Shown here piece by piece: positions 3,453 through 64,000 of a stretch of 64,000 nucleotides of DNA. The position numbers were made by a program, and so were the translations under genes. Numbering within the stretch: position 1 is the first letter of the stretch; the number at the start of each line of letters is the position of its first letter. The stretch spans positions 30,549-94,548 of IMG/VR virus record IMGVR_UViG_3300009710_000010; one strand, written 5' to 3'. The stretch is from a virus. Lineage: Duplodnaviria > Caudoviricetes. A model generated the notes under the pieces. The model saw only the letters and a program-made list of their open reading frames with translations. It was not told the origin of the DNA and did no database searches.

Positions 3453-3829
3453 TGGTGGACCTGGAGGGAGTCGAACCCTCGTCCGCAAGACATTACTCTC
3501 AAGACCTTTTACATGCTTAGGCTATTTTAAAGACCAGCTCCCAGTCTTAGGGGCGATCTGGCTTCAAACCATTTCACCCTCCACCATCTGATCTTTACAG
3601 GCGTCAGAATTCCTCAAGCTAGTTTAAAAGTCCAGCTTAAATGACTCTTTTTGATACTTTCTGTTTCGAGGTTGTATCCACCCAATCAAAGCTAACTGCA
3701 ATTAAGCAGCGTTTTGAAATGCGAAATCGTTAGATTCTGCATTTATAAATCGAAGCAGGTTTTAACCGTCCACTTCACCGGTCGCATGATTCTAAGCCTA
3801 TTTCTCCACGTCGAAACCATGGCAGGCCC
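3453..3829 (-). ncRNA. ssrA: tmRNA (one-piece), tag AESNDFAFQNAA*
   Basis: 5' GGGCCTG pairs with 3' CAGGTCC-ACCA including G3.U70; T-arm GAGGGTTCGACTCCCTC; tag ORF 3740-3702 with GCA resume codon ending GCT GCT TAA. Confidence 0.95.
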
Positions 3830-14225: not shown

Positions 14226-15092
14226 TTACTCTGATTTAGGACCAGAGAACTCAGTTATATTTTCGTTTGATAACATTTTTCGATACTGAATAAAACCACG
14301 TAGGTTTCCAGACCTCAAAGTTGAGTCGTCTGTAGCTTGCGCTTGATGTTCTGTTGGAGATGCGTGTAGTGGAGATCCTCCCACTAATCGGTCATATAAC
14401 TGTAAATCTTTTCCATAAGAATTCTCAGAACCATCTAAAGTTGAGTACGATGTACGGGCGCATCTTGCTACAGAGACTTTAATTAACTCTGCTACCATTT
14501 CATCACCATCTTTTAAACTTGAATCGTTTAAAACATTTGCCATATCCGTTCCGGTGACAAACGGTAAATGCCACTGACCTTTCTTTAATTGGTTAGGCAT
14601 ACTTTTAGAGTATTCTTCCCACATCGCAAGTGCGAGCTCTCTAAATTCTGGTTGAGCATCTTTATGAGTTCGAAGTGCAAAGAAGTTATTCCAATCTGTA
14701 GCGGTGGCCACGACCCTCATGTGTTGGAACGGTTCTAAAAGACGATTAGCGTGTTGTTTATGGACCCCAAGATCTGAAAGTTTTTGAACGAAACCCATCA
14801 TAGCATCTCTAGCTTCCAACCAAATTTTAACAGCTTCGTCTTGACCTTCTATTTCCTCTTTAGCCTGCATTCCTTTACAGTTTTTAGAGAACGATGATGG
14901 CATAGCTGGATTTTTTGAAATCTGTTCCATAAACGTGGCCACGGGAATGGCACGTGAACTTGATGCGTTCTTTGAAATCATACGATGAGTCATAAATTCT
15001 GAATGAATAAATCTAGGATACGTTAGAACGAAAGTAGTTAAACGCACGCCTGCTGGTGAAAGTGAATCAGCTATGATTTCAGCTTTAATCAA
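14226..15092 (-). CDS. thyX: Flavin-dependent thymidylate synthase
   Basis: SEFMTHRMISKNASSSRAIP, HKQHANRLLEPF, FFALR...AQPEF, HASPTEH (phage Thy1 type). Confidence 0.88.
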   Translation of the reverse strand: MIKAEIIADSLSPAGVRLTTFVLTYPRFIHSEFMTHRMISKNASSSRAIPVATFMEQISKNPAMPSSFSKNCKGMQAKEEIEGQDEAVKIWLEARDAMMGFVQKLSDLGVHKQHANRLLEPFQHMRVVATATDWNNFFALRTHKDAQPEFRELALAMWEEYSKSMPNQLKKGQWHLPFVTGTDMANVLNDSSLKDGDEMVAELIKVSVARCARTSYSTLDGSENSYGKDLQLYDRLVGGSPLHASPTEHQAQATDDSTLRSGNLRGFIQYRKMLSNENITEFSGPKSE

Positions 15093-21840: not shown

Positions 21841-22296
21841 ATGATAACAGACAAAAAACTAAAAAAGTATTATCGCCACGCTCTGGCTGCTTCGGTGGAT
21901 TCTCCAGATCCATCAACTAAAGTCGGAGCCGTTTTAATCAATAAAAATTCAGGTGCCGTTATAGCTGATGGCTTTAATGGGTTTATTCGAGGAGCTCAAG
22001 ACGACAAGCTACCTCTCACACGACCAGAAAAATACGACTATATCATTCACGCAGAAACCAACCTACTATGTAATGCAGTAAAACATGGAATTTCAACTGA
22101 TGGTTGCGTTTTATTTTGTACCCATTCACCGTGCATTAAATGTATGCGTATGCTATATCAAGCAGGAATAAACGAAGTCTATGTTAAAGAGTTCTACTCA
22201 GACTTTAAAACTTGCTCGTCGATGCTAGACCTAAGTCTTGAGGTTACAACGCTGGGCGAATTTAGTAAAATAGAAATTAAACCAAAGAGGAATTAA
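21841..22296 (+). CDS. dCMP deaminase
   Basis: DPSTKVGA, HAETN, THSPCIKC. Confidence 0.92.
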   Translation: MITDKKLKKYYRHALAASVDSPDPSTKVGAVLINKNSGAVIADGFNGFIRGAQDDKLPLTRPEKYDYIIHAETNLLCNAVKHGISTDGCVLFCTHSPCIKCMRMLYQAGINEVYVKEFYSDFKTCSSMLDLSLEVTTLGEFSKIEIKPKRN

Positions 22297-52665: not shown

Positions 52666-52695
52666 AAACCCGACCCTAATAAGGTCGGGTTTTTT
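52666..52695 (+). terminator. Rho-independent terminator after the capsid gene
   Basis: AAACCCGACC-loop-GGTCGGGTTTTTT. Confidence 0.85.
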
Positions 52696-55128: not shown

Positions 55129-56184
55129 ATGTTTTTTGAGTCATATCAAATAGATAAGAAAACAAAGATTGGTATTACGCACCTCCTGTCAAATATAACG
55201 ACTCGAGAGGGTTCTCATAAGGGTGGATGGACTAGATTGTTGAAGTGTCAATTATTTAATATGGGATACGAAAACGTTACTATTTTAGATAATAAAAATT
55301 CACTTCAAGAATTTGAAGTTATCATCTTTGATTTGGGTGCTGAATTCTCTGGAGCATTAAACATGTTCGGTGGTTTAGATGAAAAAGTATTTAAAAGACT
55401 CTCTGAAATTAAATCCTTCAATGGTAGTTTTTATTCTTGGCGCAACGATCTTCCTGATTTATCCGTACTCGAGTCCCGCAGAACCAACGCCAGCACCTGC
55501 GAAGCTTTCAAGGCAACAGAGGCGACGTTCCTAAGTGATGTAAGCTCAAAATTATCATCATGCAAGACTTTTATGCATGCTTATAAAACAACTAAAGTTT
55601 TGATTGGTGATTCCCATACACCAAGCGTATGGACTCCAGAGTTTATGATTGAGCGTAGAGATGGGCGTACGCTTAAGGGGATGATCGATAAAGAAACTAT
55701 CCATAAAATAGTAAACACTAATTTTAGATTTCACGGAATGGATATTGATGCAGTTCATATTCACTGTAGTTCTATAGACATTCGACATCACGTTTTTAGA
55801 GAGCAAAATCCAGAACAATACATTGCAACTTTAGGTTCCCAGCTTTTAGATCGATTGCTTAATCTCCACGACCCATGTGAATTAATCGTAACCCATTCTA
55901 TGGGAATAGAAGATGAGTCTAGAGATCTTCCAAAGACTGGTTACTTCAAAGGTACGCCATTTATGGGCACGTGGGAACAGCGTAACTTAGCTAGAAACAT
56001 ATTTAATGCCGTAATGGATGAACTTCCAAAAATGGATCACGAAACTAAAGTAATAACGTTTCCAGAGTATTTCTTTGATGAAACTGGAAAACTTAAATTT
56101 GATGTAATGGAAAAACCACAATCGGTTCATTTATCCCCAGAGTTCTATCGATGGGACTTAGATAAAAACGTTAGGAGATGGTAA
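55129..56184 (+). CDS. Hypothetical enzyme with SGNH-like GDSH motif, first gene of the modification cluster
   Basis: LIGDSHT, IDIRHH, C-terminal SVHLSP. Confidence 0.55.
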   Translation: MFFESYQIDKKTKIGITHLLSNITTREGSHKGGWTRLLKCQLFNMGYENVTILDNKNSLQEFEVIIFDLGAEFSGALNMFGGLDEKVFKRLSEIKSFNGSFYSWRNDLPDLSVLESRRTNASTCEAFKATEATFLSDVSSKLSSCKTFMHAYKTTKVLIGDSHTPSVWTPEFMIERRDGRTLKGMIDKETIHKIVNTNFRFHGMDIDAVHIHCSSIDIRHHVFREQNPEQYIATLGSQLLDRLLNLHDPCELIVTHSMGIEDESRDLPKTGYFKGTPFMGTWEQRNLARNIFNAVMDELPKMDHETKVITFPEYFFDETGKLKFDVMEKPQSVHLSPEFYRWDLDKNVRRW

Positions 56185-57212
56185 TGGATATTTATTCTGA
56201 TGAATACATAAAGTATTTGTATTCACTTCCCCATAAAGAGAGAAATCGTAAGTTTATAGAAAACTTCCCAAATCTAAATATTTTAGATATGCCAGATCAC
56301 GGCGTACCTAGAATCGGTAAAGCTGAAAAAGAGCATAAGAATCCCAAAGGTTGGGTTAATATAGATGCGCTCCCTCCTAGAGATGAGTCAAAATCTCTTG
56401 AGTATTATTTAAGTTTAATTCCTAATTTTAAAGATCCATATCCAAATAATGTTGTAGAACATGAAGGAGTCCTGGTTATAAGAGACGATCTTATTCCTGG
56501 AAACTTAGGTTCAAAAGCCAGATACACAGAAGCTCTAATAAGTCAAGTTCCTCAAAAATACTTATTTTATGCCATGGTCCCGCAAGGTCAAGCTCTTAAA
56601 ATTTTAGCATCAGTTGCAAAGAAATATAATAAAATGATAGTTGCAATTGCGCCTTTAAGAAACGAACCAACCGAAGGCCATGTTGAAGCAATGATGCGAG
56701 GTGCGATCATGATGTTCTATCAGACTGGTGGAATGGCTGGAGCTAGAAAGCGTTGCAGAGATTTTATTACAGAACAATTAAATGGACAAGGTTTATATAT
56801 TCCAGCGGGAGTTAAGCACGAGTTGATAACTGCCGGATTCGCTAAATCATGTTTAGCTATCAATAACGAGTTCAAACCAGATGTGGTGTTTTCTGTAGCT
56901 AGTACTATGGTTATGAACCACGGTATTCAGTTAGGATTTCCTCAAGCAGAAATTTACGCAATACAAGTAGCAGGTAATTCAGCTTCAAGAAAATATCCAG
57001 GTAGAGCTAAAGTTATTGAGCATCCGCAACCGTTTAATGAACCATGTCCTAAATCAGATTTGCCTCCGTTTAATGCTATTGAAACTTATGATGCTAAAGG
57101 TTGGAAGTATGCTTTAGAATATAAAAAGGCAAACCCTGATAAAGTTGTAATGTTTTGGAACGTTGCAGGAGCTACTAATTTGGAGGATGTAAATGTTAAC
57201 AGCAATGGGTGA
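56178..57212 (+). CDS. PLP-dependent enzyme, fold type II (TrpB/cysteine synthase-like)
   Basis: VIRDDLIPGNLGSKAR (Schiff-base Lys region), YDAKGW, FWNVAG. Confidence 0.72.
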   Translation: MVMDIYSDEYIKYLYSLPHKERNRKFIENFPNLNILDMPDHGVPRIGKAEKEHKNPKGWVNIDALPPRDESKSLEYYLSLIPNFKDPYPNNVVEHEGVLVIRDDLIPGNLGSKARYTEALISQVPQKYLFYAMVPQGQALKILASVAKKYNKMIVAIAPLRNEPTEGHVEAMMRGAIMMFYQTGGMAGARKRCRDFITEQLNGQGLYIPAGVKHELITAGFAKSCLAINNEFKPDVVFSVASTMVMNHGIQLGFPQAEIYAIQVAGNSASRKYPGRAKVIEHPQPFNEPCPKSDLPPFNAIETYDAKGWKYALEYKKANPDKVVMFWNVAGATNLEDVNVNSNG

Positions 57213-57813
57213 CGTAATGCGAGAAGCTTACAAACGTGGGTGGATTACAACTAGAGATGGTAACGTTTCAGTAAAACAACATGACTGTTTTTATATAACT
57301 CCGTCTGGTGGAAGAAAATCAATTATACACCCAGAACATATATTAAAAGCTAAAATTCAAAAAGATAAATCTCTTAAATGGGTCAGAAACAAATCTGATA
57401 ATAAACCTTCTGGAGAATTAGAAATGCACCTCTTACTGCAGACTACCGACTGCGTTAAAAAGTACAGATCCGTTGTTCATTTACATCCAACATACACTAT
57501 TGCAGCTATGCACAAAGGTTTTGATCTTCAAAAACTAGCTAATGAATTTCCAGAAGTCAGTAGATACACTAAAGTTGGTCCTAATGTTCCAGTTCTTCCA
57601 GTAACGTCCGCAGTTCTAGCTAATTCAACATTTCAAATGATGACTGAAATTCCAGAGTTTACCATGGGTACTAAACTGATATATGATATTGTAGGTCAAG
57701 CTGGTCACGGAGTTACCGCAGTCGGAATGTCACCGTGGGACGCGTTTGAACATATTGAACGATTAGAACATATTTGCCAAATAGTTTTGGCATCAGGGGT
57801 AAGTCCTAAATGA
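57193..57813 (+). CDS. Class II aldolase/adducin-family protein
   Basis: DGNVSV, ITPSG, PSGELEMH, VHLHP, GHGV. Confidence 0.88.
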   Translation: MLTAMGDVMREAYKRGWITTRDGNVSVKQHDCFYITPSGGRKSIIHPEHILKAKIQKDKSLKWVRNKSDNKPSGELEMHLLLQTTDCVKKYRSVVHLHPTYTIAAMHKGFDLQKLANEFPEVSRYTKVGPNVPVLPVTSAVLANSTFQMMTEIPEFTMGTKLIYDIVGQAGHGVTAVGMSPWDAFEHIERLEHICQIVLASGVSPK

Positions 57814-58151
57814 CTAGAGATAAATTATGTAAATTTTGCGATTCTAAATTTACTGATAACAGTAGATTTAATACACAGGAGCTATGTTCTAATTTCTGTA
57901 AAAAAGAACACATGAATTATCTTAGATACACCTCTATTTCAAAAGATCAATATTTAAAGTTATTACAAGTATCCAATTGTCAACTTTGTAATAAGTTATT
58001 TAACAAGAGACAGGATCTTCATATAGATCATTGCCACGAGACCGGTAAGGTTAGAGGCGTTTTATGTAGAAAATGTAACGTAGCTATTGGTAGTCTTGGG
58101 GATAATGCTCAAGGACTTCAAAAAGCTATAAGATATTTGGAAGGCGCATGA
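57810..58151 (+). CDS. Endonuclease VII-type HNH homing endonuclease
   Basis: CQLC...IDHCHETGKVRGVLCRKCN. Confidence 0.85.
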   Translation: MTRDKLCKFCDSKFTDNSRFNTQELCSNFCKKEHMNYLRYTSISKDQYLKLLQVSNCQLCNKLFNKRQDLHIDHCHETGKVRGVLCRKCNVAIGSLGDNAQGLQKAIRYLEGA

Positions 58152-59188
58152 TTAAAACTGAATTCTTTCAAGACTTCTTAGACTATTATATTAAAGCTAA
58201 ACATCTTCAAGAGAAGAATCTTGGAATATCTGTCATCAACAATGTCAACGATCCTTTAATGGATAATGTGACTATCTATGATACTGTCAATCGTCGATTT
58301 GCTGGATTCTCTAAAGCTTTAGAAGACATTCACGGCGTTAGAGTACGAAAGGAATTAAGTCGATATGCGGACTTTTCTAAAAAACTTACTTCTCATCAGT
58401 TTCATTTTATTCACCTGTTTCACAGGTTTACTGGTAGTGGCGCATCTTTTCAGCCAACTATTTTACCTGATGGAACAAGAAATCCAAACGAGCACGGATA
58501 CTACAACAATCATGTTGGAAAACTTGCCAACATTATAAGTAATCACGATATACCAATGGCAAAAGAGTACATCGTAACTCTTAAAGAACCGATGGTTACT
58601 TCTGTAGGAAATCAACCGCCATCTCTAAAAAATGGAGATCCATCAAAATACAGATTGGCCCAACAGTATTACTTCGATAATTTTGCAGATGCTTTTGTTA
58701 ATGATTATTTGACGTTTTTAATAAACAACGAATACAAAAATAATAAACCAACAGGAATTAAAGAAGCAGTCGATTTCTGTTGTGGATGGCATAAGTCTAA
58801 AAATTTCAAACAGTGGCATTTCGTAATGACCGCCTTCGTAATGGACACAGCTGAGTATTATCCAGAATTAGTAGATCCAAATTCACATTGTTATTATGGT
58901 GCTAATTGCATTAGATCATTTGACCTTATCTTTACTAAAGAAAAAGGTGATCCTAAAAGTAAAGCAGACTTTTACGAACAGTGTATGACAGAACTTTGCA
59001 AAGCAGTAAACGGTAAACCTTATGATGTTGAAGACGTTTGCTGCGATTACATTAGATACGTTAAAGAGTATATTCCAAAAGGATATACTCATCTTACAGA
59101 AGAACAACGAATTAACAACTCCACGCTAAAACAAAATGGCGCTTATCCATCAGAGATCCTAGAAAAAATCAACAAAGTATTGGGGTAA
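58148..59188 (+). CDS. Putative DNA base-modifying enzyme (HhH-glycosylase-fold, aGPT-Pplase/5-hmU kinase-like, tentative)
   Basis: IYDTVNRRFAGF, FHRFTGSG, YYGAN, YDVEDVCCDYIRY recall this family; gene context supports it. Confidence 0.45.
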   Translation: MIKTEFFQDFLDYYIKAKHLQEKNLGISVINNVNDPLMDNVTIYDTVNRRFAGFSKALEDIHGVRVRKELSRYADFSKKLTSHQFHFIHLFHRFTGSGASFQPTILPDGTRNPNEHGYYNNHVGKLANIISNHDIPMAKEYIVTLKEPMVTSVGNQPPSLKNGDPSKYRLAQQYYFDNFADAFVNDYLTFLINNEYKNNKPTGIKEAVDFCCGWHKSKNFKQWHFVMTAFVMDTAEYYPELVDPNSHCYYGANCIRSFDLIFTKEKGDPKSKADFYEQCMTELCKAVNGKPYDVEDVCCDYIRYVKEYIPKGYTHLTEEQRINNSTLKQNGAYPSEILEKINKVLG

Positions 59189-59189
59189 C

Positions 59190-59753
59190 ATGAAGACGTA
59201 CGTTATAAACCTCCTCGGAGGTTCCGGTCTTGGTAAATCTACCACGGCTTCTTTAGTATTTGGAGAATTAAAACTCAGAGGTGAACTTTCTGAATTAGTG
59301 AGAGAGTTCGTTAAAGAGTGGGCATGGTCTGGTAAAAAAGTGGGACCATTCGGACAATCTATCATCTACGGTCAACAGCTAGAACGAGAATCTTCTCTCT
59401 ATAATAAAGTTGAGTTTATAGTAACAGACTCTCCGTTGCTTCTATGTCCTGTCTATCAAAAACATTATAATGGACACGAGTCAATTAAGCATTCTGTCTT
59501 TTCTGATATGAAGTTAGCAGCTAAGCAAGACGTAGTTCACATTAACTTTCTTTTAACTCGTCAGAAGCCCTTTGATTCTAGAGGGCGGTACGAAGATGAA
59601 AAGACGGCTAAAAGTATTGACCGTAAAGTTGAAGCATTTTTAGACTATCATGGGATTGACTACATTCTTGTTGACGTAGCTGATCAAGATAGAGTAAAAT
59701 TCATTACTGAAACTGCTCTAAGAATTCGATCAGAAGGAGTTAAAAATGGTTGA
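59190..59753 (+). CDS. P-loop kinase (NadR/AAA_28-like)
   Basis: GGSGLGKST, EFVKEWAW, VTDSPLLL, GRYE. Confidence 0.8.
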   Translation: MKTYVINLLGGSGLGKSTTASLVFGELKLRGELSELVREFVKEWAWSGKKVGPFGQSIIYGQQLERESSLYNKVEFIVTDSPLLLCPVYQKHYNGHESIKHSVFSDMKLAAKQDVVHINFLLTRQKPFDSRGRYEDEKTAKSIDRKVEAFLDYHGIDYILVDVADQDRVKFITETALRIRSEGVKNG

Positions 59754-60389
59754 AGTAAAATGCGCCTGTGGTAAGAACAAACGTAATTTTAAAGTTGATG
59801 TAGGTTCTTATGTAGATGAGTGTTGTATTGAGGCTGGATACGATGAACTCGGTAAACTTAAAAAGAAGCCTTTAGATACTAAAGATCTTCCTTCTGAGGA
59901 AGAATTAGCCAAAGCTGCAGCTAATCTTAAAGACGATCCAAACGAGGAAATGGCTAAACTAGAAGATCAAAAAGAGGATAAAGAAGATCAATCTGATGAT
60001 TCTCAAGAAGATCAAAAAGAAGAAACTAAAGAAGAAAAGAAAGCCCGTAAGAAAGCTGAAAAAGCTGCTGCAATGGCTGCCCAGAGAAAAGCCGAAAAAG
60101 AAGCTAAAACTGAAGAGACTACAGAAAAGGCAGAATAATGGAAGTCAAAGAGACCTCAGTATTTGAAACTCAAAATGCGGATCTTGGGACATTTCTTTTA
60201 TTCGAAGGCATTAAACTTATCGAATGTAAGAAGTCCCCAACTAATCCACGTGTGGTCGTACTGAGGTTCCTTGATGAGAAGAAAAATTGCCTAGATTTAG
60301 AACGTGTGTATTTAAGCTCACCTTATAAAAAATTTAGAGATATTAATAAGTATCTTTTAACTAAAATCCATGAAGCAATGCGGGAATAA
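59746..60389 (+). CDS. Two hypothetical proteins (59746-60138 charged low-complexity; 60138-60389)
   Basis: Translationally coupled ORFs. Confidence 0.55.
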
Positions 60390-60488: not shown

Positions 60489-61465
60489 ATGATACAAACT
60501 AAGTTTGCCGCAGTGTCTGCGCAACCATTTACATCTGACGGGGATTCAGAAGGTAACTTAACTGTTGCCGACTCTACTTTATTTAAAGTCCAACAAATTA
60601 TACTTTTAAAATCGAGTGCTCAACAGCCTCGAGAACTACAAATTAAACGAATATCCGGTCCTAACCAAATTAAAGTCGGTAAATTAAAATCACCTATCCA
60701 CGAAGGTGTTGATATTTCAGACTTCCTGGTTGCGGACGGGGCTACCATACAATCTAAAGAACAAGATAGACCCACAATACCTCCTGATGCTTTTCAAAGG
60801 GCTGTATACGATGAGGAGCCCACGGTTGCTATTAGAACTACGTCTGTTGACGCCTTAGGAAACAAGTATTCTACTAAAAATCCTATGCCGGTGAGACTAT
60901 CTGATGGAGACATCAATATAGGAACGGTTAACGGGGAATTAGAAGTCCAGCTATCTCATAAAGATGGAGATCCAGATTCCGGAGATGTTCACGATTCTAT
61001 TAGAATTGGTGACGGCGTAAACGAGGCGACCGTTACCAAAGCTATAACTGGAACTAAGGCTGGACTAAACATAAATTCTATTAATGATGCTTTTTCTAAG
61101 CCTTTTAATAAATTAACGGTCCTTACAAAAAATGATGACGGGGACCCTCTAACAATAAGATCGTCTTATTTTGGGACTCCGGTTCAATTGGCAACAGTAA
61201 TATACGATTCTGACGGCGATTTTCAGGACATTGAAGTGAGTGATTTATAATGGGAAAATCAGTAAGACCTAGACGAAAAATTTCTATAAACCCGACTACT
61301 GGAAAACTAGATCTAGTATCGGATAATAACTTTAGTTATGAAAGCGTACCAAATAATAAAAGATTACATATTCCAGAAAACCACCAAATGGTAGTACGTG
61401 AGGAATTTGAAATAGAGACTGGATCAGAATTAAAGCTTGATGGATCCCTAATTGTGGAGGAATAA
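60489..61465 (+). CDS. Two putative virion structural proteins (60489-61250, 61250-61465)
   Basis: Beta-rich, behind a TGATAAAAT promoter, TAATG-coupled to the fibre gene. Confidence 0.55.
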
Positions 61466-64000
61466 TGGCAAGAATCAGAATAGCGGCTAGTAACCCAGCG
61501 TCAATACCAACGCCGCCAGCAAATAAAGCTACGATGTTTTTAGATATTACAGATATGTCGTTTAAGGCTAAATTGCCAGATGGATCTTTAATACCTATTT
61601 CAGCAACTCAAGAATATATTCAAGATCAATTTGCAAACTTTATACAAGACTCATCTACAATTAATTTTACGTATGATGACAATAGCAATTTAGCGTATTT
61701 AGAAGTTATTCAATCTGCACTAGATGTTTTTCAAATACCAGTAACTCCTAGTGGAAATTTAACATCTACAAATGTTGGAGCGGCTTTAAACGAGTTGCAG
61801 TCTAGTATAGATACTACCGACTCTAATTTAGCTACAGAAATTGCTAATAGAATTTCAGGTGATTCCAATTTACAGACTCAAATAACTAATCACATTAATG
61901 ATCCGGATCCGCATCCACAATATTTAAAAGAGGCAGATAACTTATTAGTAAATCCGCAAATAGTTAGAGTTAAAATTAGTAACGCAGGTGCTGGTGAATT
62001 TACTAGTTTAAATGCTGCTATCGCCTCTATTACAGATGCTGACCCTGAAACAAAACCATATGTAGTTATGGTTGGGGCGGGAGTTCACAATGTAGTGAAC
62101 CCATTAGTAATTCCGTCAGGCGTATCTATTCGAGGCGAAGGTATTAACGTTACGACTTTAAAACCAACTGTAGCTAATCAGCACTTGTTAATTCCTGGTA
62201 CTTTAACGGAAATCTCATTTTTAAATCTAAAAGGTATATCTGGATCTATTGGGTCTGGCAAAGCAGCCGTTTATTGTGAAAATGTTGGAGATTTTGCCCA
62301 GATTCATAAAGTATCTATTTATGACTTTGATATAGGTATCGAAAATAATTCTAATGGAGGAGACTCAACTATTTACGTCGAGTACACAGACATTAATGGT
62401 GATTTCTTACATGCTGTTAAAAACACTTCAGATGGTATTAATGCTAATAGACTTCAACTTGAAAACTTTTATACATACGAATCTGGAAATTCGTCTTCGG
62501 TTCATATTTTATCCTCAGGTGCTACTGCTGAACTTTTAATAAATTCAGCTGGATTGATTGGAGGAATTAACAATAAAGGTATAGTACTTTCAAATGGAGG
62601 TACTACTAAAATATCTGATACGTTTATTCAAGGGTTTTTAGGAGTTAATGGCGTTGGTCTTCAAAACGAAAATATAGGATCTGGATCTTTTATAGAAATT
62701 ACTTCAGTTTCTTTTAGTGATAATACTTCAGATCTACAAATATTAAATCCAAGTTCTACAGGTACAATATTAGGCGCGCTGGATAGAAATAAAGTTTCCA
62801 TTGTTAATGGCGCTGATTTTTCTGTTTCATTTTTAAATACTGATGAGAGCGGTATTACGTTTAACGGTAAAATATTCTACTCTCAAAATAACGTGCAAGA
62901 TGCGGAAGATATATCTGAGTTGATTATTAACACTCCACCGATGGGGGTAATCAACGGAGGTATTATTTCCCATGTTTCTGGGTTAACTATCAATATATCC
63001 CAAGGTTATGGATATAGAATGAACGGAGTCATTCCAAATAACGTCTTAGTACGTGAAACTTGGAATTCTACAAATTTAGTTATACCAGCAAGTTCTAATG
63101 TATTTGTGTATATGAATACTTCTGGAGTATTCGTTTCTAATTCGGCGTTTCCCAATACAGAAAACAATATTCTTTTAGGTAGAGTTATTAGTGATTCTAG
63201 CTCTATTTTATATATAAGTCAAACACCTCTACAAGCTCACCATTACAATAATAAAGTAGATAAGCTTCTTAGAGAGGCATTAGGACCCGTATACGTTTCG
63301 GGATCTTTAGTATCCGAAAACGGTACTCGCCAACTAGATGTCACTCAAGGAGAATATTATTATTCAGAAAACGAATTTATTCCAACAGGAGCAGTTATCG
63401 CAACTTGGGATGCATTTTATAAAAGTGCGACTCCTGGAGTATTTAATAGAATTGCGTCTCAAAATACAATATCGAATTCTCAATATGATGATGGTAGTGG
63501 GACTTTAGCCTCTATCCCGGCTTCTAGATTTACTAAACACGTTTTATATGTTTTAGGTGGACCTTCTGAAAAATATCTATTAGTGTTTGGTCAAGATACT
63601 TATGTTACTCAGGCTGAAGCTGAAGCAGCTCCACTTGCGATGCCTCCTAGTTTTGTAACTGGAGCCTTTGTAAGAATTGCGTCAATAGTGGTACAGCAAG
63701 GATCTGCAAATATATCTAGTATTGTGGATGAACGACCTCGAATAGGTTTTGCATCATCATCGACGGTTGGTGGCGTAACTTCTCATAGTGATTTATCTGG
63801 GTTAGGTAACGACGATCATACTCAATACTTGTTAGTAAGTGGTTCTAGACCTATGTCTGGAAATTTAGATATGGGTGGTAACAGCGTGGTAAACGTTGGT
63901 ACTATAGATGGCGTTGACGTTTCAAACCATGCGTCAAGACACTTACCAAACGGGGCAGATCCTTTAGCTACCGGAACTCCTTCAACTATTTCAGATTCTA
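61465..64000 (+). CDS. Long tailspike/tail-fibre protein with pectate-lyase-like beta-helix, truncated by the window end and absent from the ORF track
   Basis: Frame open from ATG 61465 to 64000 (about 845 aa); DPHPQY, GEFTSLNAAI...PSGVSIRGEG, DDHTQY, HASRH motifs. Confidence 0.8.
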   Translation, partial: MARIRIAASNPASIPTPPANKATMFLDITDMSFKAKLPDGSLIPISATQEYIQDQFANFIQDSSTINFTYDDNSNLAYLEVIQSALDVFQIPVTPSGNLTSTNVGAALNELQSSIDTTDSNLATEIANRISGDSNLQTQITNHINDPDPHPQYLKEADNLLVNPQIVRVKISNAGAGEFTSLNAAIASITDADPETKPYVVMVGAGVHNVVNPLVIPSGVSIRGEGINVTTLKPTVANQHLLIPGTLTEISFLNLKGISGSIGSGKAAVYCENVGDFAQIHKVSIYDFDIGIENNSNGGDSTIYVEYTDINGDFLHAVKNTSDGINANRLQLENFYTYESGNSSSVHILSSGATAELLINSAGLIGGINNKGIVLSNGGTTKISDTFIQGFLGVNGVGLQNENIGSGSFIEITSVSFSDNTSDLQILNPSSTGTILGALDRNKVSIVNGADFSVSFLNTDESGITFNGKIFYSQNNVQDAEDISELIINTPPMGVINGGIISHVSGLTINISQGYGYRMNGVIPNNVLVRETWNSTNLVIPASSNVFVYMNTSGVFVSNSAFPNTENNILLGRVISDSSSILYISQTPLQAHHYNNKVDKLLREALGPVYVSGSLVSENGTRQLDVTQGEYYYSENEFIPTGAVIATWDAFYKSATPGVFNRIASQNTISNSQYDDGSGTLASIPASRFTKHVLYVLGGPSEKYLLVFGQDTYVTQAEAEAAPLAMPPSFVTGAFVRIASIVVQQGSANISSIVDERPRIGFASSSTVGGVTSHSDLSGLGNDDHTQYLLVSGSRPMSGNLDMGGNSVVNVGTIDGVDVSNHASRHLPNGADPLATGTPSTISDS

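Follow-up and report, generated by a model that had tools for sequence, protein, structure and literature searches.

Organization and recurrence of the gene cluster

The window, a stretch of 64,000 nucleotides that was analysed as a whole, comes from a marine-type phage and contains, at 55129-59753, five tightly coupled enzyme genes and one inserted EndoVII/HNH gene. These genes, the two small reading frames behind them and two context genes outside the operon are listed below.

55129-56184, + strand (open reading frame from 55117): P0001, two-domain SGNH protein (phrog_13881, structure search); overlaps the next frame by 7 nt
56178-57212, + strand: P0002, fold-type II PLP enzyme, ACC-deaminase-like (phrog_7093); overlaps the next frame by 20 nt
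57193-57813, + strand: P0003, class II aldolase/adducin-family enzyme (PF00596, 84.7 bits); ATGA overlap with the next frame
57810-58151, + strand: EndoVII/HNH homing-endonuclease-like gene (PF02945 Endonuclease_7, 73.7 bits); ATGA overlap with the next frame
58148-59188, + strand: P0004, helix-hairpin-helix glycosylase-fold protein (predicted structure, motif); 1-nt spacer before the next frame
59190-59753, + strand: P0005, AAA_28-type P-loop kinase (PF13521, 43.6 bits; phrog_2107)
59746-60138 and 60138-60389, + strand: two small coupled reading frames of 130 and 83 aa, function not assigned
21841-22296, + strand: dCMP deaminase (PF00383, 74.1 bits at G000:52404-52733), outside the operon
14226-15092, - strand: ThyX flavin-dependent thymidylate synthase (PF02511, 58.7 bits at G000:45140-45655), context only

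An earlier note on this DNA had described five coupled enzyme genes broken by one HNH gene, and the overlaps, the domain matches and the recurrence of the cluster bear this out. Its choice of ATG 55129 as the operon start was right, with GGAGG found 7 nt upstream and the homologues of P0001 beginning at the same ATG. The operon is located between head and tail genes. No terminator-like site was found on the + strand within the block, and a strong terminator lies at 52666-52692, downstream of a 472-aa head-module gene. The same gene order was found again in relatives, hundreds of metagenomic phage contigs of about 117 kb carry the arrangement, and the homologues number 230 for the transferase P0004 and 588 for the SGNH protein P0001. 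The operon is thus confirmed as real, well beyond chance.

The constant part of the operon is limited to the genes for the SGNH protein, the PLP enzyme and the transferase. The aldolase gene, which is missing in L017/L018, and the kinase gene, missing in G001 and L017/L018, are accessory. The EndoVII/HNH gene, which matches phrog_2633 and phrog_2914 (endonuclease VII), sits between the aldolase and the transferase; it is not at that position in G001, L019/L020 and L023, and L017/L018 lack both this gene and the flanking aldolase. Its absence from these relatives denotes an insertion, in our reading a selfish one. The 83-aa reading frame is found downstream of the operon in all relatives inspected, and a role of either small frame in the pathway is putative.

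Enzymes encoded in the operon

The enzyme classes had been called correctly in the earlier note, as judged from Pfam and PHROG matches and from the SGNH and glycosylase folds. P0001 has no match in Pfam and matches phrog_13881 with an E value of 1.9e-42. Its N-terminal domain (about residues 1-150) is a novel alpha/beta domain, and residues 157-355 adopt an SGNH-hydrolase fold in the AF2 model (pLDDT 89), with an invariant GDSH motif (Ser166) and His338. Structure comparison by VIA aligned it to 7tog (Z 14.3, rmsd 2.6, 169 residues aligned); the top VIA rows are all SGNH esterases or acyltransferases, and Foldseek matched a sialate O-acetylesterase with probability 1.0.

P0004 displays no match to Pfam or PHROG, and none of the Pfam Pplase families was recovered even at E 10; an hhalign comparison against M6 gp51 was likewise null. 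In its predicted structure (AF2 pLDDT 91), the nearest solved structure is 8z2m, the PaMx11 5-PmdU glycinyltransferase (PUGT), with Z 10.3, rmsd 4.3 and 212 residues aligned by VIA, and the rows that follow are all HhH glycosylases. A BFVD match was annotated as 'Amino acid:DNA transferase domain' (E 1.7e-15), further BFVD matches are Pplase1 and HMUDK_hel proteins of PhiW-14, SP10 and RSL1, and Atlas neighbours carry PF18723/PF18724. The invariant motif Glu295-Asp296-x-x-Cys299 has the same spacing as 'ETVLC' in M6 gp51 and as the metal-binding and catalytic motif E243-T244-x-x-C247 of PUGT (PMC11472151). P0001 is the invariable partner of P0004, and in other phages the two are often one protein; at least five representatives of such fusions carry the same motif (a G004 protein, P0323, P0330, P0339 and P0396). 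Moreover, P0337 is a fusion of methyltransferase, HMUDK_hel (43 bits, above the cut-off) and P0001. With no Pplase match in Pfam and the null hhalign result, the link of P0004 to this superfamily rests on fold, motif and fusions, by which P0004 is a predicted divergent clade of the aGPT-Pplase (ADDT/HMUDK_hel) superfamily. The earlier proposal that this protein has a glycosylase fold and is related to the aGPT-Pplase/ADDT transferases therefore holds by structure and motif; a match to the Pplase families themselves, a check that the note had suggested, did not appear, and the fold is a related one.

P0002 is a member of the M6 gp52/ViI gp226 family, of which M6 gp52 is a characterised DNA-adduct decarboxylase, and has an N-terminal extension of about 90 aa. 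It matches phrog_7093 (E 2.8e-27, profile positions 14-278 of 279), whose core is M6 gp52 (2.2e-159), and PF00291 PALP is present in its homologues. The predicted PLP lysine, Lys113, is invariant and aligned to K36 of M6 gp52, a residue named in PMC8989533.

The two accessory enzymes are less specific in their matches. In the translation of P0003 the metal/acid residues Glu75, His96, His98 and His172 and a TPSGG phosphate-binding motif are present; its best NCBIfam matches are of the MtnB/FucA type, all far under the equivalog cut-offs, and its PDB matches are 2irp, 6vop and 4m6r. P0005 does not match PF18748, to which the control M6 gp54 scores 65 bits, and is by sequence outside the canonical 5-hmdU DNA kinase family. 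A bacterial Atlas cluster joins AAA_28 to HMUDK_hel in one protein, and P0005 may phosphorylate a DNA base (at the 5-hydroxymethyl group) or a small molecule. Since it falls outside that family and its phage relatives are located among nucleotide-metabolism genes, it could also be a nucleotide kinase.

Hydroxymethylase and predicted target base

The earlier note had stressed that no hydroxymethylase was encoded. Our search of the phage's own record found no ThyA, TET/JBP, PF18723 or PF18748, but the lack of a hydroxymethylase is probably an artefact of a record that is 82% complete and ends 4.8 kb past the P0004 gene. In the collinear relatives G001 and L023 the gene of a ThyA homologue lies 16-20 kb downstream of the operon; three further phages with the SGNH-family protein, namely Aeromonas phage 44RR2.8t, G004 and L028, have such a homologue as well. 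All five homologues align with T4 gp42, carry D145, C148, D171 and D179 (T4 gp42 numbering) and show the dCMP-hydroxymethylase signature L143D, D169 and N177D; by published criteria the dUMP enzyme keeps Asn, and 5hoC synthase is marked by D169N (PMC13326640). Among the metagenomic relatives checked, a dNMP-kinase-like gene adjoins the ThyA homologue in G001, L023 and L028, and a dUTPase_2/MazG-like gene is near it in G001 and L023. In Aeromonas phage 44RR2.8t a fusion protein of the P0001 family accompanies a gp42-type enzyme, and no match to an alpha- or beta-glucosyltransferase was found. By extension from relatives with transferases 69-72% identical to P0004, the studied phage probably has the gene in the missing 20% or so of its genome. 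The ThyX of the window, as noted earlier, makes ordinary dTMP; together with the dCMP deaminase and the dCMP-type homologue of the relatives, this suggests that C, and not T, is replaced and decorated.

We consider it fairly probable that the operon acts after replication on 5-hydroxymethylcytosine of the phage's own DNA, in a hypermodification of the amino-acid or amine type. Because the relatives are predicted to make hydroxymethyl-cytosine and the operon adds enzyme types new to the hydroxymethyl-uracil pathways, the product is probably an undescribed modified cytosine. The earlier reading of a DNA hypermodification unlike the ViI/M6 thymidine type thus stands as the best one, without its premise of a lacking hydroxymethylase. 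As in the relatives, dCMP hydroxymethylase, the dUTPase_2/MazG-like NTPase and dNMP kinase would put 5-hmdC into DNA, with T kept ordinary by ThyX and dCMP deaminase. The operon, presumably expressed late, would act after replication. The 5-CH2OH may be converted to a leaving group, either a phosphate from P0005 where this gene is present or, alone or in addition, an ester formed by P0001. By analogy with PUGT, Cys299 of P0004 would attack C6 of the flipped-out base, the leaving group would depart, and an amine or amino-acid nucleophile would join the exocyclic methylene; Asp296, which replaces the Thr of uracil-specific enzymes, would suit the cytosine 4-amino group. P0002 is placed in its family by homology and may decarboxylate or otherwise tailor the tethered amino acid via Lys113, as M6 gp52 and ViI gp226 do. 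The aldolase is the least constrained step; it might tailor the adduct or use a phosphorylated, ketose-like metabolite to make the donor. Besides the lack of a hydroxymethylase in the record itself, the null family searches with P0004 and the position of P0005 outside the 5-hmdU kinase family, it counts against this pathway that we know of no ADDT that acts on cytosine, and that sugar metabolism is where SGNH enzymes, class II aldolases and kinases typically occur.

In an alternative reading hmC would be decorated with a sugar or acyl-sugar group. P0001 would then handle a glycan or acyl group through its SGNH domain, which resembles carbohydrate esterases, and an N-terminal domain faintly similar to that of T4 beta-glucosyltransferase; the aldolase and kinase would make an activated sugar, and P0004 would be mainly a base-flipping DNA-binding module. 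The top structural matches of P0001 to carbohydrate and sialate O-acetylesterases agree with it, as do a comparison of P0001 17-89 to T4 beta-GT 2-77 (hhalign E 0.0099, 4% probability), a PF09198 match of the relative P0421 at E 0.078, an MGDG_synth-like segment in P0433 and, in G004, a glycosyltransferase-like gene following ThyA. However, every one of these sugar signals is under significance, the operon has neither a nucleotidyl-transferase nor a clear GT, the invariant E-D-x-x-C of P0004 favours catalysis over mere binding and the gp52-type PLP enzyme fits poorly, so we hold this route unlikely. Thymidine (5-hmdU) hypermodification of the ViI/M6/PaMx11 kind, with 5hmU derived from 5hmC by deamination or supplied by a dUMP hydroxymethylase whose gene lies elsewhere, is quite unlikely. 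The nearest characterised enzymes, PUGT and M6 gp52, do act on 5-PmdU or its adducts, and HMUDK_hel and ADDT proteins are among the neighbours of P0004; against this, the five system-associated ThyA homologues all have Asp rather than Asn at the N177 position, ThyX and dCMP deaminase supply normal dTMP, the record shows no TET/JBP, and P0004 has Asp at the site of the O4/metal-side Thr of the uracil enzymes.

A target other than DNA would make the operon an auxiliary metabolic or virion/host-surface-modifying cluster, for example an esterase with a small-molecule pathway, that merely lies inside the structural module. Its position between head and tail genes conforms to this, phage tails can hold SGNH esterases (the N4 tail complex is VIA row 44 for P0001), and the aldolase and the kinase have folds of general metabolism. 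We regard it as highly improbable in view of the DNA-glycosylase fold and ADDT motif of P0004, the HMUDK_hel fusions, the repeated linkage to dCMP hydroxymethylase, and a PLP family that is not known outside DNA hypermodification clusters and fusions or neighbourhoods with ParB and DNA methylases.

Comparison with known hypermodification systems

The thymidine clusters of M6, PaMx11 and ViI combine 5-HMUDK, ADDT/aGPT-Pplase2 and a PLP decarboxylase (PMC8989533, PMC11472151). Our operon shares with them a transferase of glycosylase fold whose catalytic motif is Glu-x-x-x-Cys, a fold-II PLP enzyme of the gp52 type in which the lysine is the same, a P-loop kinase nearby, and a division of labour in which a ThyA homologue (here in relatives) makes the hydroxymethyl-pyrimidine before replication and the tailoring, proposed in our case, follows it. 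It differs in its linked hydroxymethylase, of dCMP rather than dUMP type, in a transferase and a kinase that lie outside PF18723, PF18724 and PF18748, in the motif E-D-x-x-C where the others have E-T-x-x-C, and in the absence of radical-SAM, FAD oxidase and acetyltransferase genes. The constant, often fused two-domain SGNH partner and the class II aldolase are additions to the ViI/M6-type pathways, as the earlier note had recognized; the former is assigned by its fold and the latter by its PF00596 score.

The T4-type 5-hydroxymethylcytosine pathway comprises gp42, gp56, gp1 and the alpha- and beta-glucosyltransferases. The relatives have dCMP hydroxymethylases whose active-site residues are identical to those of T4, together with a dNMP kinase and an NTP pyrophosphatase, and a dCMP deaminase is in the window. 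Decoration would be carried out by the Pplase-like, PLP and SGNH set, in contrast to the UDP-glucose glycosyltransferases of T4, and T4-like Aeromonas phages without alpha- and beta-gt have a fused SGNH-family protein instead.

Metavirome contigs with C5-MT/TET, a P-loop kinase and aG/PT-PPlase were described by Burke et al. 2021, where further modification of 5hmC by kinase and Pplase was speculated and nothing demonstrated (PMC8256090). Their 5hmC is made by TET after replication and their kinase is 5-HMUDK-like, whereas here neither TET nor C5-MT is found and 5hmC would be made before replication. The 5hmC carbamoyltransferase discovered by MetaGPA in uncultured phages is a non-sugar decoration of 5hmC linked to dCMP hydroxymethylase (PMC8670742). 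The pathway proposed for our operon is alike in both respects, but the MetaGPA enzyme is an unrelated TobZ-like carbamoyltransferase, and that system has no Pplase, PLP or SGNH component.

Organization and conservation of the operon

The source virus is a tailed phage; its record is linear, 94,548 bases long and judged 82% complete, and the window corresponds to its bases 30549-94548. GroEL, a class II RNR-like protein, a primase-helicase, PolA, SbcCD, terminase, portal and two ClpP-like proteases are encoded by the phage, and the GC content is about 36% and even throughout. A phage-encoded tmRNA with the tag peptide AESNDFAFQNAA is located at 3453-3829 on the minus strand. Upstream of the operon, a strong terminator at 52666-52692 ends a 472-aa head-module gene; downstream of it are genes after which, in relatives, tail-sized ORFs occur. 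A large ORF at 61465-64000 (>845 aa) runs off the contig end without a Pfam or PHROG match, and lacks similarity to the collinear relatives, whose sequence departs from that of the window from about 60.9 kb onward. The operon and the small genes coupled to it are arranged as follows.

55129-59753, plus strand: six ORFs from the ATG at 55129, encoding the SGNH protein P0001, PLP enzyme P0002, aldolase P0003, an HNH protein, transferase P0004 and kinase P0005, with overlaps of 7, 20, 4 and 4 nt and then a 1-nt spacer
extending to 60389, plus strand: two further coupled small ORFs, from ORF calling

The earlier note had described coupled enzyme genes in this block, correctly as judged from the overlaps and the spacer. 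A GGAGG is placed 7 nt upstream of the first ATG, and a terminator scan of the block found no plus-strand terminator-like site inside the operon.

Homologues of P0004 (n=230) and P0001 (n=588) come nearly all from metagenomic contigs, many of which are 114-125 kb long. The gene order is P0001-PLP-aldolase-P0004-kinase in a 118-kb Logan contig, P0001-PLP-aldolase-P0004 without the kinase in the IMG/VR contig G001, and P0001-PLP-P0004 only in a 124-kb ENA contig. Based upon this gene content, P0001, the PLP enzyme and P0004 constitute the constant core, and the aldolase and kinase are accessory. The HNH gene is missing in all three contigs and is therefore regarded as a selfish insertion. No match was obtained among 50,697 phage records for the operon by megablast or for P0004 by tblastn. 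The uncultured 117-kb phage group is widespread, with hundreds of contigs, Tara samples among them. A GIY-YIG/SegE-like homing endonuclease gene was also found in the collinear relative L023 (16106-16732), immediately upstream of its dUTPase_2-ThyA module; both this gene and the HNH gene of the operon are mobile endonucleases that accompany modification genes.

The transferase, PLP enzyme, aldolase and kinase

P0004 had no match in Pfam (even at E 10), PHROG, NCBIfam (lenient thresholds) or the PDB sequences. Its AlphaFold model, built from an alignment with 34 homologues (pLDDT 91), displays a helix-hairpin-helix glycosylase-like fold. The best of 48,161 PDB representatives is 8z2m (Z 10.3, rmsd 4.3, 212 aligned), the 5-phosphomethyl-dU glycinyltransferase (PUGT) of PaMx11, followed only by queuine-salvage DUF2419, AGOG, AlkA, Nth and other helix-hairpin-helix glycosylases. 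A Z of about 10 can arise by chance among helical proteins, but this list of matches is homogeneous. Foldseek against viral models (BFVD) retrieved an 'Amino acid:DNA transferase domain' protein (E 1.7e-15, TM 0.78) and, more weakly, Pplase1 and '5-hmdU DNA kinase helical domain' proteins of PhiW-14, SP10 and RSL1. The Atlas neighbours of P0004 are viral clusters with PF18723 or PF18724, those at TM 0.73 carrying PF18723 in 31-36% of members, and in one bacterial cluster AAA_28 is fused to HMUDK_hel. At the level of sequence profiles, PF18723 (HMUDK_hel / aGPT-Pplase1) matches neither P0004 nor any other part of the record, P0004 does not match PF18724 (ADDT / aGPT-Pplase2), for which the positive control M6 gp51 scored 159.6 bits, and hhalign of the P0004 profile against M6 gp51 was null (probability 0.3%).

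In PUGT, Glu243 and Thr244 are located at the metal and Cys247 is the C6 nucleophile (PMC11472151), and the Cys and Glu/Thr are essential in an Acinetobacter enzyme (PMC13458397). M6 gp51 possesses ETVLC at 243-247. E295, D296 and C299 of P0004 are 100% conserved in 34 sequences, in which its other cysteines vary, and they repeat the i, i+1, i+4 spacing of PUGT E243/T244/C247 with Thr changed to Asp; we infer their equivalence to the PUGT residues by position rather than by residue-level superposition. P0004 thus appears to be a divergent clade of the ADDT/aGPT-Pplase superfamily that has retained the catalytic motif, with Asp replacing Thr. By analogy, its putative activity is the transfer of an amine or amino acid to a phosphorylated 5-hydroxymethyl pyrimidine within DNA.

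Searches of P0002 against PDB sequences (phmmer) and, at lenient thresholds, Pfam and NCBIfam gave nothing useful. It matches phrog_7093 (E 2.8e-27, residues 94-330 against profile positions 14-278 of 279), the core of which is M6 gp52 (2.2e-159), characterised as a PLP-dependent decarboxylase that acts on glycinyl-thymine in DNA (PMC8989533). PF00291 is present in P0002 homologues, one of which was named ACC-deaminase-like by its source. In a joint alignment, the invariant Lys113 of P0002 is aligned with K36 of M6 gp52, the aldimine lysine proposed by its authors (PMC8989533). Judged from sequence, P0002 belongs to the M6 gp52 / ViI gp226 family, and decarboxylation of an amino acid attached to a DNA base is its putative activity. 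P0002 of the window (56178-57212) possesses an extra N-terminal region of about 90 aa and shares only about 32% identity with its counterparts in the relatives G001 and L019 (8503-9393), while the flanking genes are 60-72% identical between the window and the same relatives. This difference suggests that the PLP gene has been swapped as an allelic cassette inside a conserved operon, perhaps with strain-specific chemistry. Elsewhere, a PLP-enzyme homologue lies within a large 'DNA modification methylase' gene in Erythrobacter phage vB_EliS_R6L (gp1, L002), and another is a 236-aa gene right after two ParB/sulfiredoxin genes in Microcystis phage Mae-JY30 (L001:5989-6699). These two suggest more uncharacterised DNA-adduct pathways tied to ParB-type proteins.

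P0003 is clearly a class II aldolase-family protein by sequence, with 84.7 bits to PF00596 (cut-off 22.2) and the metal/acid residues Glu75, His96, His98 and His172 present in the translation. Its closest similarities are to the MtnB and FucA types, far under the equivalog cut-offs, none of which was reached. P0005 is an AAA_28 P-loop kinase with HMM matches limited to AAA_28 and ABC_tran. PF18748 (HMUDK_HMUD1, 5-hmdU DNA kinase) was unmatched by P0005 and in the record at E 1 (control M6 gp54, 65.1 bits), and BLASTP of P0005 against M6 gp54 aligned the P-loop only. Phage relatives of P0005 are found among nucleotide-metabolism genes. Relatives in which P0005 is present carry a second, different kinase beside ThyA, and P0005 is therefore not simply the dNMP kinase. 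Since it starts 1 nt past P0004, an HMUDK_hel-like protein, and AAA_28-HMUDK_hel fusions exist, P0005 is a plausible but unproven candidate base kinase.

The SGNH protein and its fusions

The model of P0001 (pLDDT 89) consists of an alpha/beta N-terminal domain followed by an SGNH fold at residues 157-355. The SGNH domain gave Z 14.3 to 7tog and top rows of Z 12-14.3, all of them SGNH esterases or O-acetyltransferases/acyltransferases, with a Foldseek prob of 1.0. G164-D165-S166-H167, which contains the block I GDS nucleophile, and His338, 172 residues past Ser166, are invariant; H338 may be the block V catalytic histidine, an assignment by position only. P0001 did not match the PF00657 and PF13472 HMMs, a sub-threshold Lipase_GDSL match (E 0.02-0.07) being confined to fused relatives, and lenient Pfam and NCBIfam thresholds returned nothing. 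Nothing useful was obtained by phmmer against PDB sequences, and the P0001 profile gave only chance matches there, to Cas7 and ferritin. For the N-terminal domain, the ESM Atlas feature search had no usable match, and faint likenesses to beta-glucosyltransferase (hhalign E 0.0099 at 4% probability to the T4 enzyme's N-domain; PF09198 at E 0.078 in a relative) are leads only.

An exhaustive P0001 profile search yielded 457 cluster representatives, among which are several long proteins. Five long forms (a protein of phage contig G004, P0323, P0330, P0339 and P0396) end in the PYD-x-ED-x-x-C-D-x-IRY motif of P0004 and are, by this shared terminal motif, P0001-P0004 fusions. In P0337 a methyltransferase, HMUDK_hel and P0001 are fused in this order, and PF18723 scores 43 bits, above cut-off. 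T4-like Aeromonas phages encode a 795-aa protein, the first 335 residues of which are P0001-like; its C-terminal half in ORF233c matches PF18723 below threshold (E 0.0036) and gave a weak Foldseek row in the P0004 search, and hhalign of the P0004 profile against this half was null. Through these fusions, the SGNH protein is functionally linked to the DNA-base transferase. On the 5.7-kb contig L028 (1331-5682), a dNMP-kinase-like gene and a ThyA of the dCMP-hydroxymethylase type come after a 981-aa triple fusion of FkbM-type methyltransferase, HMUDK_hel and P0001-like SGNH protein. In Aeromonas phage 44RR2.8t (ORF234c-ORF233c, L003:4396-8376), the 795-aa fusion comes immediately downstream of a phage-encoded sodium:solute symporter, which could import the modification donor.

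The probable modified base and comparison with thymidine pathways

The earlier note had reported no hydroxymethylase in the window and suggested a search of the rest of the genome. No ThyA homologue was found in the 82%-complete record, but this need not mean a true absence: the contig ends 4.8 kb past P0004. Two relatives do encode a ThyA homologue, located about 19 kb downstream in G001, whose transferase is 72% identical, and about 16 kb downstream in a Logan contig of 114.5 kb that has a 69% identical transferase and is collinear with window 47.9-60.9 kb. In each case a dUTPase_2/MazG-like gene and a P-loop dNMP-kinase-like gene lie on its flanks. The present record has no counterpart of any of these three genes, as expected if the module is located in the missing fifth. 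In an alignment with T4 gp42, T4-like td and the M6 dUMP hydroxymethylase, the ThyA homologues of G001, L023, G004, L028 and 44RR2.8t all possess D145, C148, D171 and D179 (T4 numbering). According to published criteria, N177D confers dCMP specificity, L143D/E directs hydroxymethyl instead of methyl transfer, and D169N denotes a 5-hydroxy-dCMP synthase (PMC13326640). The catalytic Cys, L143D/E, retained D169 and N177D are present in all five associated phages, the own record being without a ThyA homologue, and these proteins therefore carry the dCMP hydroxymethylase signature (PMC13326640). Since D169 is retained, a 5hoC synthase was rejected by the same criterion (PMC13326640). For the present record, a search led to the rejection of TET/JBP as a source of 5hmC or 5hmU.

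ThyX and dCMP deaminase are both encoded in the window and would then be the source of ordinary dTMP, in the manner of td and cd in T4. Phage 44RR2.8t encodes td, an enzyme of the gp42 type and the fused protein of the P0001 family; neither an alpha- nor a beta-glucosyltransferase matched there, in searches that had no positive control. In the most divergent relative, G004 (L009:2246-3760), the dCMP-hydroxymethylase-type ThyA is followed by a >505-aa protein with weak glycosyltransferase matches (phrog_14945; Glyco_tranf_2_3, E 0.018).

From the folds, motifs, family memberships, fusions and synteny observed here, each chemical step of a pathway on 5hmC can be proposed. The base would be built into DNA pre-replicatively, by a hydroxymethylase that this phage presumably encodes. 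Its hydroxymethyl group would be activated with a phosphate via P0005 and/or an ester via the SGNH domain, Cys299 of P0004 would add to C6 with expulsion of the leaving group, after which an amine or amino acid would join. The gp52-type PLP enzyme would tailor the adduct, and the aldolase may provide the donor or tailor the adduct. A kinase-independent route is also suggested, because 124-kb relatives have the SGNH/PLP/transferase core without the kinase and SGNH-transferase fusions recur. P0001 would then be a DNA-nucleobase O-acyltransferase that esterifies 5hmC, and through the Cys-dependent Pplase-like transferase an amino acid would take the place of the ester. We consider this version improbable; it would cover the cultured T4-like Aeromonas phages too, via their 795-aa fusion protein, and, if true, would give the first amino-acid- or amine-type hypermodified cytosine.

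More generally, if 5hmC does carry an amino-acid- or amine-type adduct, the product would represent a natural DNA base of a new class, made by a new clade of transferases together with two folds, SGNH and class II aldolase, newly placed in DNA modification. A kinase and Pplase acting on TET-made 5hmC were speculated by Burke et al. (PMC8256090). No published account of an amino-acid-type cytosine adduct or of the present gene set was found in the literature. To our knowledge, all characterised Pplase/ADDT-type hypermodifications are on thymine, and we know of no established role of the SGNH and class II aldolase folds in DNA modification. Cytosine forms on record are methylated, hydroxymethylated, glycosylated, arabinosylated on 5hoC, and carbamoylated. 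Whether phage DNA resists restriction, CRISPR and type IV systems is determined by such bases, which also affect how it is sequenced and cloned. The cultured Aeromonas phages (44RR2.8t, 31 and relatives), with the fused form and a gp42-type enzyme, make the system open to direct test.

Compared with the thymidine pathways of M6, ViI and PaMx11, the operon would be alike in its mode of working. It differs from them in lacking matches to the HMMs of ADDT, HMUDK_hel and 5-HMUDK, in its linkage to dCMP rather than dUMP hydroxymethylases, and in the addition of SGNH and aldolase components.
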